Source: an uncultured Alphaproteobacteria bacterium
GTDB taxonomy: Bacteria > Pseudomonadota > Alphaproteobacteria > Rhizobiales > Aestuariivirgaceae
DNA length: 64,000 nucleotides
Direction of reading: 5' to 3'
Assembly: GCA_963754675.1 (NCBI GenBank)
Contig: CAVWHD010000026.1
Location: 199,298-263,297, forward strand
Within the stretch, counting starts at the first letter, position 1. Every line of letters begins with the position of its first letter. Positions 4,821 to 11,202 of this stretch are shown piece by piece. The notes below the pieces were generated by a model that saw only the letters and a list, made by a program, of their open reading frames with translations, did no database searches and was not told the origin of the DNA. The translations under genes and the position numbers were made by a program.

Positions 4821-5618
4821 TCAGCCCCCATCAGCCCGTTTTGCCGTGGATTCGACCTGGAGCTTCTTCTGATACCTGCCCTGGATGATATCGACGATCA
4901 CCAGCGCCGCCACCACGAAATAGAAGGTTGATTTCTCCAGCGGGTGGATTTCATAGCCGAAGAGATCGAGATGCGCGATATGGGCTCCGTCCGAAAGCAG
5001 CATGACGCCCACCAGCAGCAGCACGAAAAGCCCCAGCACTTCATAGAGCCGGTTCTTCTCGAGAAACCTGGCCACATGGCCGGAAAGCAGCACCATCAGG
5101 GCCCCCGACACAATGATGGCCAGCGTCATGATCAGGAAATGATCGGTGAGTGCCACCGCCGAAAGCACCGTATCGAAAGAGAAGACGATGTTCATCACCA
5201 TCATCCAAAACAGCGCCTTGGCCACGCTGTTATGGCGCGGCCCCTCGCCTTCTTCATGTTCGAGATCCTCGATTGACATCATGTGGCGGATTTCGGTGAG
5301 CGCCGTATGAATGAGGAACAGCCCGCCCAGCATGACGATCAGGCTGTGGCCGCTGACATTGGCATGGATGACCGGGAAATTGACGCTGAACCACGGCGCC
5401 TGGAACATGGCGATCAGTTGCAGCACCACGAACAGCAGCACGATGCGTAGCGCAATGGCCAGCACCATGCCGATCTGCCGCACCCGCTGTTGGCTTTCGG
5501 GCGGAACCCGCTTGGCCTCGATGGCGATGTAGAGCAGGTTGTCGAACCCCAGCACCGTTTCCAGTGCCGTGAGAATAAGAAGGGTGAAAAGGTTCTCGAC
5601 GGTGAAAAGATCGGCCAT
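4821..5618 (-). CDS. TerC family integral membrane protein
   Basis: LETVLGFDNLLYIAI and IVFSFDTVLSAVAL TerC signatures; multiple TM helices. Confidence 0.9.
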   Translation of the reverse strand: MADLFTVENLFTLLILTALETVLGFDNLLYIAIEAKRVPPESQQRVRQIGMVLAIALRIVLLFVVLQLIAMFQAPWFSVNFPVIHANVSGHSLIVMLGGLFLIHTALTEIRHMMSIEDLEHEEGEGPRHNSVAKALFWMMVMNIVFSFDTVLSAVALTDHFLIMTLAIIVSGALMVLLSGHVARFLEKNRLYEVLGLFVLLLVGVMLLSDGAHIAHLDLFGYEIHPLEKSTFYFVVAALVIVDIIQGRYQKKLQVESTAKRADGG

Positions 5619-5646
5619 GCCCTGCCCCGGAAGGATTCGTGATTTC

Positions 5647-5748
5647 CAATTCTGTCATTGCCGGGCTTGTCCCGGCAACCCATCGTTTGGCAATACCGGT
5701 GCCCGGCGAAACATGGGTCGCCGGAATAAATCCGGCGATGACAATTGA
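5647..5748. repeat. REPIN-like inverted pair of GTCA-tagged palindromic repeats
   Basis: TGTCATTGCCGGGCTTGTCCCGGCAACCCA (5653-5682) and inverted TGGGTCGCCGGAATAAATCCGGCGATGACA (5714-5743). Confidence 0.8.
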
Positions 5749-5753
5749 GGGGA

Positions 5754-6062
5754 CTACACTTTCTTGCGCCGCATGGCCAGCCACCAGACGAGAAGGCCCA
5801 CAAGCAATGGCGGGCCGCCCAGCGTGGCGATCGCTTCCCAGGTCACATACTGCTCGCCCGTGGGCCTCATGCTCAAGGCAAACAGCAACGAACACCCGCC
5901 GGCGAACAGGAACGTCAGCAACCCCGCTGCCGCAAAGATCAGCCGCAACCCGGAATGCCGCGACAGGCCGGAGGCTGCCCGCCGTTTCTCATGGCGGTCG
6001 AGCAGCAGCCACAAGACGAGGCCCAGCACCAGCGGACCCACAATGAGTAAGGTTGCCGACAT
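5754..6062 (-). CDS. Small membrane protein A with FLFAGGC motif (102 aa)
   Basis: ATG at 6062 overlaps the upstream TGA. Three hydrophobic segments; Cys57 follows a basic stretch and a hydrophobic helix. Confidence 0.7.
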   Translation of the reverse strand: MSATLLIVGPLVLGLVLWLLLDRHEKRRAASGLSRHSGLRLIFAAAGLLTFLFAGGCSLLFALSMRPTGEQYVTWEAIATLGGPPLLVGLLVWWLAMRRKKV

Positions 6063-6298
6063 CACTCGCCCTCTTTCGCCTTCTGGCGCTTCTGCCGGTC
6101 GATCTTCAGGCCCTGGCGGAACAGGAAATAACCGCCAACCATCGGCGCCAGCCCGAACGGCAGCCAGATCGACAGGATGGTCTCCATGTCGCGGGCGAAG
6201 TTCTGGGGTTCCCAGACGATCAGCCCAAGTCCGATCAGCGTGCATCCCCCACCAAACAGGAGGAGCAGAAGACCGAATACGATCAGCAAAACATGCAC
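6062..6298 (-). CDS. Small membrane protein B with LLFGGGC motif (78 aa from GTG 6298)
   Basis: GTG 4 nt after the previous stop; MHVLLIVFGLLLLLFGGGC places Cys at position 19; second TM segment and basic C-tail. The track start at 6319 is an alternative. Confidence 0.7.
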   Translation of the reverse strand: MHVLLIVFGLLLLLFGGGCTLIGLGLIVWEPQNFARDMETILSIWLPFGLAPMVGGYFLFRQGLKIDRQKRQKAKEGE

Positions 6299-6302
6299 GG
6301 CA

Positions 6303-6641
6303 CTATACTCTCTTTGCAACGGCGACGCTGAGTCCCGCCTTCACCAGAAATGCAACGGCGGCGAGCAAGCCCCATTGCAGCATTTGCCTGTCGTTACCGG
6401 AATAGGCCAGAGTCAACCCTCCCAGGATGAGAGCCACTGCCACATCGGCGCTGGCCATGACATAGAACAGCGGCCGCAATGGTCCGGACATCCCCCACAT
6501 AACCGCGATCATCAAGGCATTGAGTGCCACGATGCCCCAGCAGACGATGGCAAGCAGGCCGCCGCTGCTCCCAAGCGTAATGACGCAACCGCCCACGAAA
6601 AGGATAATCGTGCCACAGAGGATGCTGAGCAGAACTTTCAT
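6303..6641 (-). CDS. Small membrane protein C with ILFVGGC motif (112 aa)
   Basis: ATGA overlap with the radical SAM stop; MKVLLSILCGTIILFVGGC places the motif Cys at position 19; about four hydrophobic segments. Confidence 0.75.
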   Translation of the reverse strand: MKVLLSILCGTIILFVGGCVITLGSSGGLLAIVCWGIVALNALMIAVMWGMSGPLRPLFYVMASADVAVALILGGLTLAYSGNDRQMLQWGLLAAVAFLVKAGLSVAVAKRV

Positions 6642-8050
6642 GGCAACCCCCTCGACATTGCCAGCCGCTTCCGCGCCGCCTCGTCGCGGTAGAACATGTT
6701 GTAGGTTTCGAACGGAATGATCTGGCCAGCGGGCGTGACGAAATGGATGCAGCTGCGTTTCACCCTTCCGATGCAGAAGTTGTGGGCATCCATGAATTCG
6801 ACAATCGCGATGCGGAAGATGTTTTCGTAAGCCAGGCCTTCGAGCGCCGGGATTTCCGGCAGGCAACAGAGCAGCGCGTTGAGCTTTTCCGGATTGTTGC
6901 ATTCCGCCGTGGCCAGCGAGAAGAAATTGAGCACCTGCTTGTGGAGATCGGGGAACTTCTCGAAGGTAATGGCATTGGGCAGCGCCTCCACCAGCATCTC
7001 GCGTGGGAAAAACGAGGTGATCGGCGCGATTTTATCGCCCTTGCGGAGTGCGTAGCCGATGGCGATCGATTCCGGATTGCACGGTAGCGGAATGATGTCG
7101 CCCTCGCCGAAGGCCGTGCCTGCCTCGATGATGGCGCGGCGGATGTCGGAGAGCACGAAGCGGTCGCGCTCCGGCTCGAAATTCTCATTGCGCCCGGCAT
7201 CCTGAATGGGCTGGAAGGTGATGCCGCGCACGCATTTCCATGTAAGCGCATGCTCGATGATCTCGCCCAGCTCATCGTCATTCACCCCGCGCTTCACCAC
7301 CACCACCAGCGTGGTCGAAATCGATTCCCTTTCAAGGGCTTCCAGCGCTTCCCTGCGAATCCGCGTGAGGTCGGCGCCGCGCAGAGTCTTGTGGGCCGAG
7401 GCCCTGAGCGAATCGAATTGCAGATAGACCTCGAAGCCCGGCTTGAATTGCGCCAGCTGTTTGACGAAGGAAGGCTCCTGGGCGATGCGGATGCCGTTGG
7501 TGTTGAGCATGATATGGCGGATCGGCCGTAGCTTCGCCGCCGCGATGATCTCGATGATCTGCGGATGGATGGTGGGCTCGCCGCCCGAGAGCTGCAACAG
7601 GTCGGGCTCGCCCTCGCTCGCCACCAGCGCATCCATCATCCGCTCGATCTCGGCCAGCGGCCGGTGCGCCGTTTTCGCCGTCGAGCTATCGGCGAAACAC
7701 ACGGGGCAGGTGAGGTTGCACGCCTCGTTGACGTCGATCAGGGCCAGGCACGAATGCTGCTCGTGATCCGGGCACAGCCCGCAATCATAGGGGCAGCCCA
7801 GCTCCGTCCGGGTCTGCACCTGCAAGGGCCGGTCGCCCGGCTTCAGGTAATCGTGGGCTAGCTTGTAATAGGCGGGGTCGGTGGAAATGAGCGACTTCTG
7901 CACCCCATGCGACTTGCAGCGCTTGAGATAGAAGACCTTGCCGTCCTCGATGATGATCTTGGCGGGAACCAGCGCCAGGCAGGTCTCGCACAGCGAAGTG
8001 GTCTGGCCATAGAACACATAAGGCGTGATCTTACGGGCGGGTGCGTTCAT
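6638..8050 (-). CDS. Radical SAM protein of the tetraether lipid synthase (Tes/GDGT-MAS, MJ0619)-like clade
   Basis: N-terminal CETC...CKSH metal site, auxiliary CPYDCGLCPDH, radical SAM CNLTCPVC, SGGEPT motif, C-terminal RVKRSCIHFVTPAGQIIPFETYN. SD GGAGGAG. Confidence 0.85.
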   Translation of the reverse strand: MNAPARKITPYVFYGQTTSLCETCLALVPAKIIIEDGKVFYLKRCKSHGVQKSLISTDPAYYKLAHDYLKPGDRPLQVQTRTELGCPYDCGLCPDHEQHSCLALIDVNEACNLTCPVCFADSSTAKTAHRPLAEIERMMDALVASEGEPDLLQLSGGEPTIHPQIIEIIAAAKLRPIRHIMLNTNGIRIAQEPSFVKQLAQFKPGFEVYLQFDSLRASAHKTLRGADLTRIRREALEALERESISTTLVVVVKRGVNDDELGEIIEHALTWKCVRGITFQPIQDAGRNENFEPERDRFVLSDIRRAIIEAGTAFGEGDIIPLPCNPESIAIGYALRKGDKIAPITSFFPREMLVEALPNAITFEKFPDLHKQVLNFFSLATAECNNPEKLNALLCCLPEIPALEGLAYENIFRIAIVEFMDAHNFCIGRVKRSCIHFVTPAGQIIPFETYNMFYRDEAARKRLAMSRGLP

Positions 8051-8762
8051 CTCTCCTCCCCATCATGACGGCCGAGTAGATCACGAGTCCGGCGCAAAGC
8101 AAATGAAAGAGATTGAACGGACCCGCCAGCGCCGCATAGGGCTTGAGGAACTCCCACAGGAAGCGCTGGCCGCCATAGAAGAGAACCAGGAGATAGAAGC
8201 CATTGGCCATGAAGAAGGGCTGGCGCCGCCCGATCAGAACCAGCGCCGCCAGCAGAAATCCGGTCATGGCAAAGGACTCGTAGAGCTGCACCGGATGGCG
8301 CAAAACGCCGTCGCCAAAATCATGGGCCCAGGGAACCGCCGTGGGTGAGCCATAGGTGTGATCCTCGACGCCGGAGAGAAAACAGCCCCACCGCCCCACC
8401 GCCACGCTGGTGGCAAAGGCCGGAACGAAGATGAGTCCGGTCGATCCCTTGAGCCCGCGCAGATACTTGAAGAGTTCAACCGCGGCTATGGCCCCGGCCA
8501 GCGCCCCCACAATCGACCGTCCGATGCCCGGAAGCCCGGTCAGCCACAGATTGAGGGTTCCCGCGCCATAGCCACCAGCCACCGCGCCCGCCACCAGTGC
8601 CAGGCCGTAGAGGGTCCCCGCCTGCTCGATCCGCAAGGCCGCCCCGGCAAGCCGCCAGCGATAGACGGCGAAGGTCATCGCCATGGCGGGAGGCGCAAGG
8701 CTCGGAGAATGTGGAAAATCATTTCGCCATGGCACAAAGATACTCGTGAATGCCTTCATCAT
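8031..8762 (-). CDS. Divergent prolipoprotein diacylglyceryl transferase (Lgt)-family membrane protein
   Basis: GRWGCFLSG, RHPVQLYES and FYGGQRFLWEFLK motifs. Start uncertain: ATG 8722 (MIFHIL) is out of frame and may be the true start with an indel. Confidence 0.8.
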   Translation of the reverse strand: MMKAFTSIFVPWRNDFPHSPSLAPPAMAMTFAVYRWRLAGAALRIEQAGTLYGLALVAGAVAGGYGAGTLNLWLTGLPGIGRSIVGALAGAIAAVELFKYLRGLKGSTGLIFVPAFATSVAVGRWGCFLSGVEDHTYGSPTAVPWAHDFGDGVLRHPVQLYESFAMTGFLLAALVLIGRRQPFFMANGFYLLVLFYGGQRFLWEFLKPYAALAGPFNLFHLLCAGLVIYSAVMMGRRDERTRP

Positions 8763-8805
8763 CCCCCTGCCCCTTGCGATCGGATGCACACAATTTCCCA
8801 AGTGC

Positions 8806-8953
8806 CGTCATTCCGGCAAAGGCGTGTTTTGCGAAGCAAAACAATAGCCCTTTATCCGGCAACCCAGCCTAGGGCGGTTGCCGCAATGACAGAAAGCTGG
8901 GTTCCAGATCGCTCGCTTCCGTTTGCTTCGCAAACAGTCGAGCTGGAATGACG
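8806..8953. repeat. CGTC-tagged REPIN-like inverted pair with nested hairpins
   Basis: CGTCATTCCGGC...CCGGCAACCCAGC and GCTGGGTTCCAG...CTGGAATGACG; internal GTTTTGCGAAGCAAAAC and GTTTGCTTCGCAAAC hairpins. Confidence 0.7.
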
Positions 8954-11202
8954 GCGAGGAGTTCGCTGTGCATGCGATAGCCCCCTTGGGGGGGAGATGC
9001 CAAAGCATGACGTAGGTTTGCCCCGACCCGCGCATCCGTCTTGCAATGCCCAGAGAAGATGCCGGGTCCAGCTTCCGGCCATGATGAGAGGGAGGTGTCG
9101 ATGCCGATGTCGGCTAAGCTACACTGATAGTCGAGCGCGTCCTTGATGATTTTTTGCAGTTCTTCGCGGCGGTAGGGCTTCATGATGATGAAGCCCTCGC
9201 GAAAGCGCGGCTCTTCCTGGTGCACCATGGCGCCCTTGGGATAGCCCGATGTGTGCACCACCTTGAGATCGGGGCGGATGCCGCGCGCGGCCTGGGCGAG
9301 GTCAAAGCCGTTGAGGCCGCCGGGCATCACCACGTCGGAGAACATCAGCTCGATATCGGGATTTTCCTGGAGCCTGGCCAGGGCCTGCAAGCCGTCTTCG
9401 GCTTCGACGATGTCGTAGCCGAAATCCTCGAGAAACCCGCACGCCACCGCCCGCACCGCCTCCTGGTCTTCGACAACCAGGATTTTGAACTTGCGTGGAG
9501 GTGCCGCGGCCACCGGCTCGCTTGTAACTTGTTCCGGCTCGGCGGCGGGCGGAGCATCGAGGCCGGCCACATCGGGGACCTCCTCGCCTTCCGCGAAACT
9601 GCGCGGCAGATACATCTTGATCGCGGTGCCGTGGCCCACTTCGCTGTAGACGTTGATGTGGCCGCCCGACTGCTTGATGAAGCCATAGACCATGGCGAGG
9701 CCTAGCCCTGAGCCCTTGCCCTGCTCCTTGGTGGTGAAGAACGGCTGGAAGACTTTTTCCAGGAGCTCCGGCGCCATGCCGGTGCCGGTGTCGGACACCG
9801 CCACCATCACGTAATGGCCGGGGAGCACTTCCGGATATTTTGCCGCGTAAGCCTGGTCGAGATAGACCGGCTGGGTCTCGATGGTCAGCAAGCCGCCCTT
9901 CGGCATGGCGTCGCGGGCGTTGATCGCCAAATTGAGGATCGAGGATTCAAGCTGCGATGGATCGATGACGGCCTTGGGCTCGCCCGCCATCGCATCGACC
10001 TTGAGCTGAATGGTCTCGCCGATCGACCGCGAGATCAAGGGTGCTATGCCCTTGACCATGTCGTTGACCAGGACCTCGCGCGGCTCGAGCACCTGCTTGC
10101 GGGCGAAGGCCAGCATCTGGCGGGTCAGGTCCGAACCCTTATTCGCCGCGTCGATCGCTTCGCCCAGGCGGCGCGCGCTGCGATCGTCGGTCACCAGTTT
10201 GCCTTCGAGCAGTTGCAGATTGCCGATGATGATGGTGAGCAGATTGTTGAAATCATGGGCAAGGCCGCCGGTCATCTGGCCGATCGCTTCCATCTTCTGG
10301 GCCTGCTGCAACTGCTTGGCCGCCTGCTTGCGCTCGCTGATATCGGCGACCTGCACGATCAGTTGCTCGATCTGGCCTTCGTCGTTGCGCACCAGCGCCA
10401 CGCTGGTGGAGCCGTCCTTGCTGCGCGAGGCCTCGTCGGTGAAGCGGAAATCCTGGCGGATCGAATTGACGTTTCCCTTGATCAGCTCGCTCATGCTGGC
10501 GAGGAACGGGCCGCGGTCCTCCGGGTGCAGAACTTCGTCGAGTGTGACGCCTTGCCTGGCATCACCGGCCTTGCCGAGAAAATCCCAGAATGCGCTGTTG
10601 GCCAGGGTGATCTCGCCCAGGGGAGAGACCAATGCCATGCCATGCGGCGCCGATTCGAAGGCGCCGCGGAAGCGCTGATCGTCGACTACCGTGACCGGCG
10701 AGGCCACATTGATCGAGATGGGCTCGTCCAGCATGCAGACCGAGCGCTCGATGCGGCCCTTGTCGCCGCGATAGGCGTTCATCGACAGCAGCACCTGCAT
10801 GGTCGATCCGTCGCGGCGCACGACAGTGACGATCTCGTCGCGGCAAACCCCGCTCTGCAGATAGGCGGGATAGACCTGCTGGACCAGCCGGGCCCGCGAT
10901 TCAGCCGTGAGAAAGTCGTTGAAGGCGCGGCCCTTCACGTCTTCGGCGGTGTAGCCCAGCGTCTCCGCCCAGCGCTTGTTGATCGAGGTGAGCCGCCCGC
11001 CGCCATCCATGCAATGCAGCATGACCGGCAGGTTGAGCAGCAGAAGTTCGTAGACCTTGCCGTTCTGATCGGGAAAGAACGGCACATAGTTGTCATGGGT
11101 GACCTGTGGCCGCTCGATCTTCCAGGCGGGTCCGCTCTGGCGGAGTTCGTCCCAGCCGGTGAACGGCTGATTGAGGCTGGAAGTATTGATCGAAGCGGTC
11201 AT
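8869..11202 (-). CDS. Cytoplasmic hybrid histidine kinase (PAS-PAS-HisKA-HATPase-REC), CckA-like H box
   Basis: [39 protein letters not shown], receiver KILVVED...FSDVVMPGG. The last ~80 codons run through repeats; the true stop is probably TAG at 9114 after one indel. Confidence 0.9.

Follow-up and report, generated by a model that had tools for sequence, protein, structure and literature searches.

Protein S-lipidation by Lgt is commonly viewed as a single pathway, universal and essential, whose substrates are cleavable signal peptides carrying a lipobox. A 64,000-nucleotide stretch of contig CAVWHD010000026.1 from an uncultured member of the Aestuariivirgaceae (the whole stretch is hereafter called the window) raises the question of whether an Lgt-like enzyme might serve a different kind of protein. 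Here, five genes follow one another on the minus strand: a gene for a divergent member of the Lgt family, a gene for a radical S-adenosylmethionine (SAM) enzyme, and three tandem genes for small membrane proteins, which we call A, B and C and which share the motif F-x-G-G-C. The original prediction, made from the letters of the window, had taken A, B and C for otherwise dissimilar proteins that present a lipobox-like cysteine to the neighboring Lgt, and the open reading frames (ORFs) and motifs that it described proved exact. What are these proteins, and what might their shared cysteine be for?

Profile comparisons assign all three proteins to one fast-evolving family of small inner-membrane proteins whose core is a hairpin of two transmembrane (TM) helices. 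This family belongs to a three-part module composed of a single-copy Lgt paralog, a single-copy radical SAM enzyme related to tetraether synthase (Tes), and a variable cassette of cysteine-bearing hairpins. The conservation pattern and the company that the hairpins keep suggest a probable role for them as targets of, or partners in, a protein-lipid modification that is as yet undescribed.

The hairpin genes accompany an Lgt paralog and a Tes-like radical SAM enzyme

To collect related loci, we scanned species-representative genomes with an alignment of the radical SAM enzyme, which matched at least 599 stretches, and kept 80 loci with radical SAM enzymes at 62-89% identity. Orthologs at 62-91% identity occur in at least 591 stretches of these genomes, the closest relatives being annotated as Aestuariivirga or Hyphomicrobiales. 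The 80 loci come mostly from Alphaproteobacteria (Bradyrhizobium, Rhodoplanes, Reyranella, Phenylobacterium, Dongia, Rhizomicrobium, Desertibaculum and Alitabrizicola), and some come from metagenome-assembled genomes labelled Planctomycetota, Binatia or Gammaproteobacteria. In essentially all loci with enough flanking sequence an Lgt-like gene adjoins the radical SAM gene, usually just upstream of it; in the Planctomycetes loci (L011-L013) it lies downstream instead.

Using small same-strand ORFs found beside the radical SAM genes, we built a hidden Markov model (HMM) of the hairpin family and searched 12,838 six-frame segments, including roughly 10 kb of flanking sequence for each locus together with the remainder of the window, at a cut-off of E<=1e-3. 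The model matched 149 segments, spread over 78-79 of the 80 loci; all of them lie on the strand of the radical SAM gene and directly beside it, and nothing else among the 12,838 segments matched. Six loci with matches had contributed no training sequence. In the remaining two loci the motif is present as well, in matches that are weaker or cut off by the contig end. The hairpin genes lie downstream of the radical SAM gene, apart from three loci (L047, L052 and L053) that have them between the two enzyme genes; gene order thus varies among the loci while the trio persists. No further larger gene family is conserved among the loci, and their neighborhood has no conserved protease, exporter or gene containing a RiPP recognition element (RRE; RiPP, ribosomally synthesized and post-translationally modified peptide).

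The association also held when approached from the other side. In ten of ten contigs picked from small-protein matches alone, genes with LGT and Zn_ribbon_HMPTM/Radical_SAM domains lie immediately upstream, usually with more small ORFs between; in one case the gene at the LGT position has no Pfam record. The HMM-based check of co-occurrence proposed with the original prediction therefore came out positive both forward (78 of 80 loci, the other two being weak or truncated) and in reverse (10 of 10). Copy number is far from fixed: 35 loci have one family copy, 26 have two, 13 have three, two have four, and single loci have five and six. The idea of a variable cassette tied to the adjacent divergent Lgt was thus borne out, with one to six copies, sometimes as fused repeats, next to the Lgt-like and Tes-like pair.

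The small proteins form a divergent family with a common design

Against the family HMM, B and C scored E=1.8e-14 and E=4.4e-14, respectively, and A only 0.007. We also aligned with hhalign a profile of A-type orthologs and a hairpin profile built without A-types; the two matched at 93.8% (E 1.8e-7) over 27 columns that cover helix 1 only, with cysteine on cysteine. By this comparison A is a four-TM protein that shares just the motif helix with the hairpin family, and its orthologs, present in nine loci, keep M1, K2, C9, G17, G18 and C19 invariant. The description of the three proteins as otherwise dissimilar consequently needs revision for B and C, which belong to one divergent family, and remains apt for A outside helix 1. 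Further TM helices do follow the motif in each protein, as had been noted from the sequence: A has about four by hydropathy, and B and C have the two of the hairpin.

Members of the family share a design in which a short, often proline-rich N-terminal tail ending in K or R leads into a long uncharged helix with the motif L-[LF]-[PSCAGT]-G-x-C-[ASTG], followed by a short loop, either acidic or of Gly/Ser type, a second helix in which GG-x-P is frequent, and a basic C-terminal tail. The motif varies by lineage, reading GGC in Aestuariivirga-like members, LLPG[LIV]C in Bradyrhizobium and allies, PSGLC in Rhizomicrobium and CG[GLTAS]C in Caulobacterales. Pfam and NCBIfam searches of A, B, C and 83 family members returned only scattered sub-threshold noise, e.g. 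DUF308. A search of 1.84 billion representatives at 50% identity gave 1933 profile matches at E<=1e-3, 103 of them at E<=1e-10, and a word-indexed search with the family alignment gave 413 proteins, all of them called hypothetical or arbitrarily auto-named and essentially none with a Pfam domain.

Some proteins (P0246, P0247, P0248 and P0274) consist of two or three fused hairpin repeats in 160-238 residues, and in several of them the extra repeat has no cysteine. Bradyrhizobium-type members (e.g. L075 6413-6661, L062 and L066) have a second conserved cysteine where helix 1 begins on the cytoplasmic side; it stands in the context R-[SGN]-G-C-[LAV]-T-A and precedes the motif cysteine by about 17-18 residues. 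Caulobacterales members have CxxC instead (LCGGC, LCGTC or FCGLC), and A-type proteins have the invariant C9.

One cysteine is conserved at a constant predicted membrane depth

In order to assess conservation, we aligned 83 members that are mutually less than 50% identical. Mean column identity was 22%, as compared with 62-89% for the radical SAM enzyme and 43-76% for the Lgt-like protein, and the cysteine was the sole invariant column, with the glycine at -2 conserved in more than 90%. The cysteine is present in 147 of the 149 local matches; in the two others the match is partial and falls on helix 2. The local set had been selected on the cysteine, and we hence added a search of independent 50%-identity representatives. 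Among the top 145 representative proteins, 151 of 155 domains have the cysteine, and the four that lack it belong to two-repeat fusions whose other repeat retains it; the profile itself rewards cysteine, which makes this count supportive and short of fully independent. Further conserved positions are glycines of the kind that pack helices, at -9/-10 and -2 in helix 1 and at G34 of helix 2 (116 of 149 matches).

The charges of the family are distributed very unevenly, at 0.143 K+R per residue in the N-terminal tail, 0.038 in the loop and 0.319 in the C-terminal tail. Because this distribution obeys the positive-inside rule, the hairpins are predicted to have both termini in the cytoplasm, with the cysteine at the outer-leaflet (periplasmic) end of helix 1. 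From the last charge on the N-terminal side to the cysteine there is a median of 19 uncharged residues (quartiles 18/19/20), a spacing that, at 1.5 Å per residue, would place the cysteine near the outer-leaflet interface. After it come a median of ten uncharged residues, a short loop, the second TM helix and the basic tail. An AlphaFold2 (AF2) model of residues 36-102 of C, with a pLDDT (predicted local distance difference test) of 75, shows a helix at 3-29, a loop and a helix at 40-66, with the cysteine seven residues before the end of helix 1. Thus, as the original prediction would have it, the cysteine is kept in homologs, and it is predicted to lie on the periplasmic rather than the cytoplasmic side.

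The motif departs from the canonical lipobox

A canonical lipobox belongs to a cleavable signal peptide, and LspA needs a small residue at position -1 relative to the cysteine. The small proteins resemble lipoprotein precursors in that a hydrophobic helix with its N-terminus inside leads to a cysteine after small residues (G-G-C in the window). When we applied a PS51257-style rule, A satisfied it (K2, an uncharged h-region, F-V-G-G-C and Cys19), B fitted the pattern with no K or R in its first seven residues, and C failed on position, its cysteine being residue 57. Glycine occupies -1 in all three.

The family as a whole looks different. Its motif is L-[LF]-[PSC]-G-x-C rather than L-[AS]-[GA]-C. 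At -1 the local set has L 60 times, G 57 times and A 11 times, plus I, V and T, such that G, A or S accounts for 68 of 149; the representative domains have L 83, G 39, V 11 and A 10 times, with G, A or S in 51 of 155. The residue at -3 is P, S, C, A, T or G, not L, and the pairing of a small residue at -1 with L, V or I at -3 does not hold. Given that non-small residues are so common at a position where LspA needs a small one, LspA-type cleavage cannot be a conserved step. Moreover, members with G and members with L at -1 share the same locus (e.g. in L014 and L035), which argues that this position is no specificity determinant. Nor does a soluble mature domain follow the cysteine in the family: the hairpin cysteine lies within a 30-residue uncharged stretch, and since its helix is the first half of a two-TM hairpin without a mature domain, these helices are not signal peptides. 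The lipobox-like look of the motif and the cysteine at position 19, both prominent in the original prediction, are thus local features and not traits of the family, in which the cysteine falls anywhere from residue 10 to residue 115 (median 31.5).

Both enzymes are remote relatives of lipid-modifying enzymes

The Lgt-like protein matches PF01790 at 64.5 bits against a gathering threshold of 24.9 (E 1.2e-17) and scores 28.9 with the lgt equivalog model TIGR00544, far below its cut-off of 118.9. We aligned the paralogs of 71 loci with E. coli K-12 Lgt and found S101, G104, G142, R143, G145, G150, Y201, E202, Y235, R239 and E243 to be invariant, with the G154 region gapped. Of the residues that are essential or catalytic in E. 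coli Lgt (Y26, H103, R143, N146, G154, R239 and E243), the invariant set thus includes R143, R239 and E243. The signatures GRxGxF and Y..xRF.xEF.K are retained. Whereas phmmer found no match to the protein in the Protein Data Bank (PDB), a profile of the paralog had as its best sequence match the E. coli Lgt structures 5AZB/5AZC, weakly (E=1.1e-3) and with both motif blocks in register. AF2 modelled the protein with a pLDDT of 88.7 and a predicted template modelling score (pTM) of 0.86. These comparisons describe a member of the Lgt superfamily that keeps the lipid-phosphate-binding arginines and has altered catalytic residues.

The radical SAM enzyme combines a zinc ribbon (PF23545, Zn_ribbon_HMPTM, 3e-17) with a radical SAM core (PF04055, 1e-20), as does archaeal Tes/GDGT-MAS (MJ0619; PMC8941075, PMC9433317) with its bacterial homologs. 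It matches the Tes model over residues 16-309 (1.5e-84), and it falls below the cut-offs of both of the relevant NCBIfam models, TrsS (NF045646; 304.7 bits against 490) and Tes (NF045702; 284.3 against 450). It differs from archaeal Tes in this low score and in forming a separate branch that is always paired with the Lgt paralog and cysteine hairpins. Models of SPASM and RiPP maturases match the core domain only, at 1e-7 to 1e-10. Proteobacterial homologs of Tes were reported in 2022 with no function assigned (PMC8941075), and a 2026 review lists only Mss as characterized (PMC13459092).

The hosts themselves offer a further contrast with archaeal Tes. They are mostly aerobic or microaerobic Alphaproteobacteria, a group that to our knowledge is not associated with tetraether lipids.

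Organization of the gene cluster in the window

The genes of the window are packed tightly (Table 1). The Lgt-like gene, whose start may be ATG 8762 or the upstream TTG 8801, overlaps the radical SAM gene by 20 nt, the radical SAM stop codon overlaps the ATG of A (ATGA), and the stop codon of B overlaps the ATG of C (TGATG). These start/stop overlaps point to translational coupling. The assignment of GTG 6298 as the start of B is backed by orthologs that begin at the equivalent codon (MHILLIV... in L004 and MYIVAIA... in L010).

Table 1. Genes of the Lgt-like/radical SAM/small-protein cluster and the gene that follows it (positions in the window)
Feature	Positions	Strand	Evidence
Lgt-family membrane enzyme gene, divergent	8031..8762	-	Pfam LGT 1.2e-17
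Radical SAM enzyme, 470 aa, Tes/TrsS/HMPTM group, N-terminal Zn-ribbon	6638..8050	-	Pfam, NCBIfam
Small protein A, 112 aa, ~4 TM by hydropathy	6303..6641	-	ORF, orthologs in 9 loci
Small protein B, 78 aa from GTG 6298, 2-TM hairpin	6062..6298	-	family HMM
Small protein C, 102 aa, extra N-terminal TM then 2-TM hairpin	5754..6062	-	family HMM
TerC-family gene	4821-5618	-	next gene after C's stop

In A the motif reads ILFVGGC and lies in helix 1 (Cys19, codon 6587-6585). In B it reads LLFGGGC (Cys19, codon 6244-6242), and the protein ends in the basic tail RQGLKIDRQKRQKAKEGE. In C it reads FLFAGGC (Cys57, codon 5894-5892); a basic cytoplasmic loop, DRHEKRRAASGLSRHSGLR, precedes the hairpin, and the tail is RRKKV. 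Across all six frames of the window F.GGC occurs four times, and three of these occurrences fall in A, B and C; mononucleotide shuffles gave a mean of 0.6 per window. Metatranscriptome contigs span parts of A, B and C as well as the junction of A with the radical SAM gene, at low depth and from relatives, possibly as contaminating DNA.

A possible role as lipid acceptors, and its rivals

We favor the reading in which the hairpins are dedicated acceptor substrates of the enzyme pair that are S-lipidated without cleavage of a signal peptide, and we give it a probability of roughly 45%. According to this proposal, a constant stretch of about 19 uncharged residues, counted from the cytoplasmic face, would set the depth of the hairpin cysteine and bring it to the outer-leaflet interface, which is where the active sites of the Lgt family operate. 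There the Lgt paralog would S-alkylate or S-acylate it; the attached lipid would probably be a group of the diacylglyceryl type that a phospholipid donates, and no cleavage would follow. More speculatively, the cytoplasmic Tes-like enzyme might use radical chemistry to alter the ends of the tails, either of this lipid or of its donor, e.g. by tail-to-tail coupling; as a guess, it would act, like Tes, on tail ends that meet in the middle of the bilayer. The outcome would be a modified lipid anchored to a protein. Several considerations favor an acceptor role. The hairpins evolve as substrates might, because only G-x-C, its membrane depth and the topology are kept while copy number floats. Cysteine is the nucleophile of all Lgt-family reactions, and here it sits at the end of a helix with its N-terminus inside, as does the cysteine of a lipobox. 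Finally, the partner is an Lgt-family protein that retains the phosphate-binding residues R143, R239 and E243.

A number of observations count against this proposal. The case for it is drawn from gene context and sequence, and the same holds for the substrate cassette of the original prediction, in which the variable cassette and its setting stood up and the substrate status is read from gene context. Unlike E. coli Lgt, the paralog has cysteine in place of the essential N146 in 71 of 71 loci (GR-x-G-C-[FYL]), V, E, A or L in place of H103, and no N-terminal Y26 region, such that its chemistry may differ from diacylglyceryl transfer. Foldseek searches of the PDB with the AF2 model gave nothing better than E=1, with 5AZB not listed; given that 5AZB does emerge from the profile search, we do not count this result against an Lgt fold. 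The radical SAM enzyme is cytoplasmic, and the cysteine is predicted to lie near the opposite leaflet. In addition, a relaxed search revealed probable paralogs in which the cysteine is replaced by A, V or I (L016 6825-7052, L040 6419, L052 2781 and L045 7193). Each sits in a multi-copy cassette, and these may be decayed copies or partners that are not substrates.

The main rival to the acceptor proposal, unlikely in our estimation yet the most serious of the alternatives, holds that the hairpins are stoichiometric subunits or membrane carriers of an Lgt-like/radical SAM complex. Their cytoplasmic tails would dock the radical SAM enzyme, and the cysteine would act as a catalytic or carrier thiol, e.g. 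through a transient thioether, a thioester or a mixed disulfide with the cysteine of the Lgt paralog, and not as the place where an end product forms. Strict adjacency, translational coupling and the conserved helix-packing glycines (-9/-10, -2 and G34) would all fit such a complex, and the invariant cysteine at the N146 position invites cysteine-cysteine chemistry: an active-site cysteine that faces a substrate cysteine suggests covalent or disulfide chemistry. However, one to six hairpin copies accompany enzymes that are single-copy, a mean identity of 22% would be unusually low for obligate subunits with an interface to preserve, and G and L occur side by side at -1 within single loci. Improbable, to a degree that sets it well behind a subunit role, is a RiPP-like arrangement in which the radical SAM enzyme, rather than the Lgt paralog, acts on the hairpins, with the Tes-like enzyme joining a carbon radical of lipid or peptide to the cysteine sulfur, or otherwise modifying the peptide, and the Lgt-like protein as an accessory. 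Multi-copy, hypervariable small ORFs with one conserved cysteine do resemble precursor cassettes, and Tes chemistry passes through a bond between lipid carbon and the sulfur of an auxiliary cluster (PMC13459092). Yet the best matches of the enzyme are Tes and TrsS, with RiPP-type models confined to its core, the loci have no conserved protease, exporter or RRE gene in their neighborhood, and the cysteine is predicted on the far side of the membrane from the enzyme.

Two further explanations can be regarded as effectively excluded. That A and B are ordinary precursors processed by the housekeeping Lgt, LspA and Lnt, with a cleavable helix 1 and an incidental neighborhood, is very improbable: A meets the PS51257-style rule and B its pattern, but -1 is L, V, I or T in 46-67% of members, -3 is P, S, C or A rather than L, the position of the cysteine ranges over about a hundred residues, and some ten uncharged residues and a second TM helix stand where a soluble mature domain would be expected. 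Linkage to the enzyme pair in 80 of 80 loci forward (two of them weak or truncated) and in 10 of 10 contigs in reverse is, moreover, not incidental. Least credible of all is that the motif arose by chance in spurious hydrophobic ORFs, of which GC-rich genomes do give many long ones; the clustering of three of the four F.GGC occurrences here against 0.6 expected, the start/stop overlaps indicative of coupling, frames kept by orthologs across 80 genomes and 1933 clusters at 50% identity, and, weakly, the metatranscriptome contigs over the region all speak against it.

If the acceptor proposal is carried a step further, the module might constitute an undescribed conjugation pathway in which the Lgt paralog, through its active-site cysteine, lipidates the intramembrane cysteine of the uncleaved hairpins and the Tes-like enzyme couples or cross-links the tails, e.g. 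with those of an opposite-leaflet lipid, to give protein-anchored membrane-spanning lipids. We consider this extended version doubtful. Were it true, it would provide the first function for the 'orphan' bacterial Tes homologs of Proteobacteria. The module itself appears to set beside the universal pathway a second, dedicated Lgt-family enzyme with its own uncleaved membrane miniproteins and a radical SAM enzyme of the lipid-tail-coupling type. Should the cysteine be the modification site, the hairpins would represent a new class of lipidated membrane protein, and a small, taggable acceptor would offer a handle on bacterial Tes homologs. The family comprises at least 1933 clusters at 50% identity and is found in culturable genera, e.g. 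Bradyrhizobium, Rhodoplanes, Dongia and Reyranella. We found no paper that links an Lgt paralog, a Tes-like enzyme and small cysteine proteins, and none on the hairpin family.

Comparison with known systems

Relative to the lipobox/Lgt system (E. coli Lgt, 5AZB/5AZC, PF01790 and PS51257), the module differs not only in the motif and the hairpin but also in having the radical SAM enzyme as an obligatory third partner. The nearest conceptual precedent is provided by the MYXO-CTERM tags, whose authors propose lipidation by an Lgt-like acyltransferase despite the lack of a canonical lipobox (PMC11980579). In both systems a short motif with an invariant cysteine (GCGC-like in MYXO-CTERM) stands beside a TM helix and a basic tail. 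MYXO-CTERM is, however, a C-terminal tag on large secreted cargo, with the opposite helix orientation and a CPBP-type intramembrane protease, myxosortase (PMC11980579), whereas the hairpins have neither cargo nor a protease partner and are instead accompanied by the Lgt paralog and the radical SAM enzyme.

RiPP cassettes with radical SAM maturases (sactipeptides, ranthipeptides and SCIFF) likewise have tandem, hypervariable small ORFs with cysteine next to a radical SAM gene. The present loci differ from them in that SPASM and RRE domains are absent and neither a protease nor an exporter is conserved, and in encoding integral membrane hairpins with basic cytoplasmic tails rather than leader-core peptides. 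A RiPP precursor with a SPASM maturase was considered as a candidate and rejected, as SPASM models match only the core and no protease or exporter is conserved across the loci.

Neighboring sequences

An Rfam search of positions 5400-9100 gave no match. The spacer between the stop codon of C and the TerC-family gene (5614-5750) contains two GC-rich hairpins, TTGCCGGG-N5-CCCGGCAA and GTCGCCGGA-N5-TCCGGCGAT, and was covered by contigs at depths of 21x and 99x in two metatranscriptomes, far above its surroundings. It is probably a repeat common to many organisms that resembles repetitive extragenic palindromic (REP) elements.

Some lineages surround the module with genes of their own. This was noticed in L085-L087, which are of the Bradyrhizobium type, and in L081 and L092. 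Immediately upstream, the Bradyrhizobium-type loci have genes for a regulator of the Crp/Fnr type (HTH_Crp_2) and for a response regulator, and downstream they have typA/bipA; some loci have a divergent gene for a B12-binding radical SAM protein (DUF4070) upstream. The Crp/Fnr gene in this lineage-specific neighborhood hints at control by low oxygen. In one lineage (L083, L089 and L091), the gene after the hairpin cassette encodes a GNAT acetyltransferase (Acetyltransf_3), and the Lgt-like gene is preceded by one for a protein of about 180-199 residues that has no annotation.

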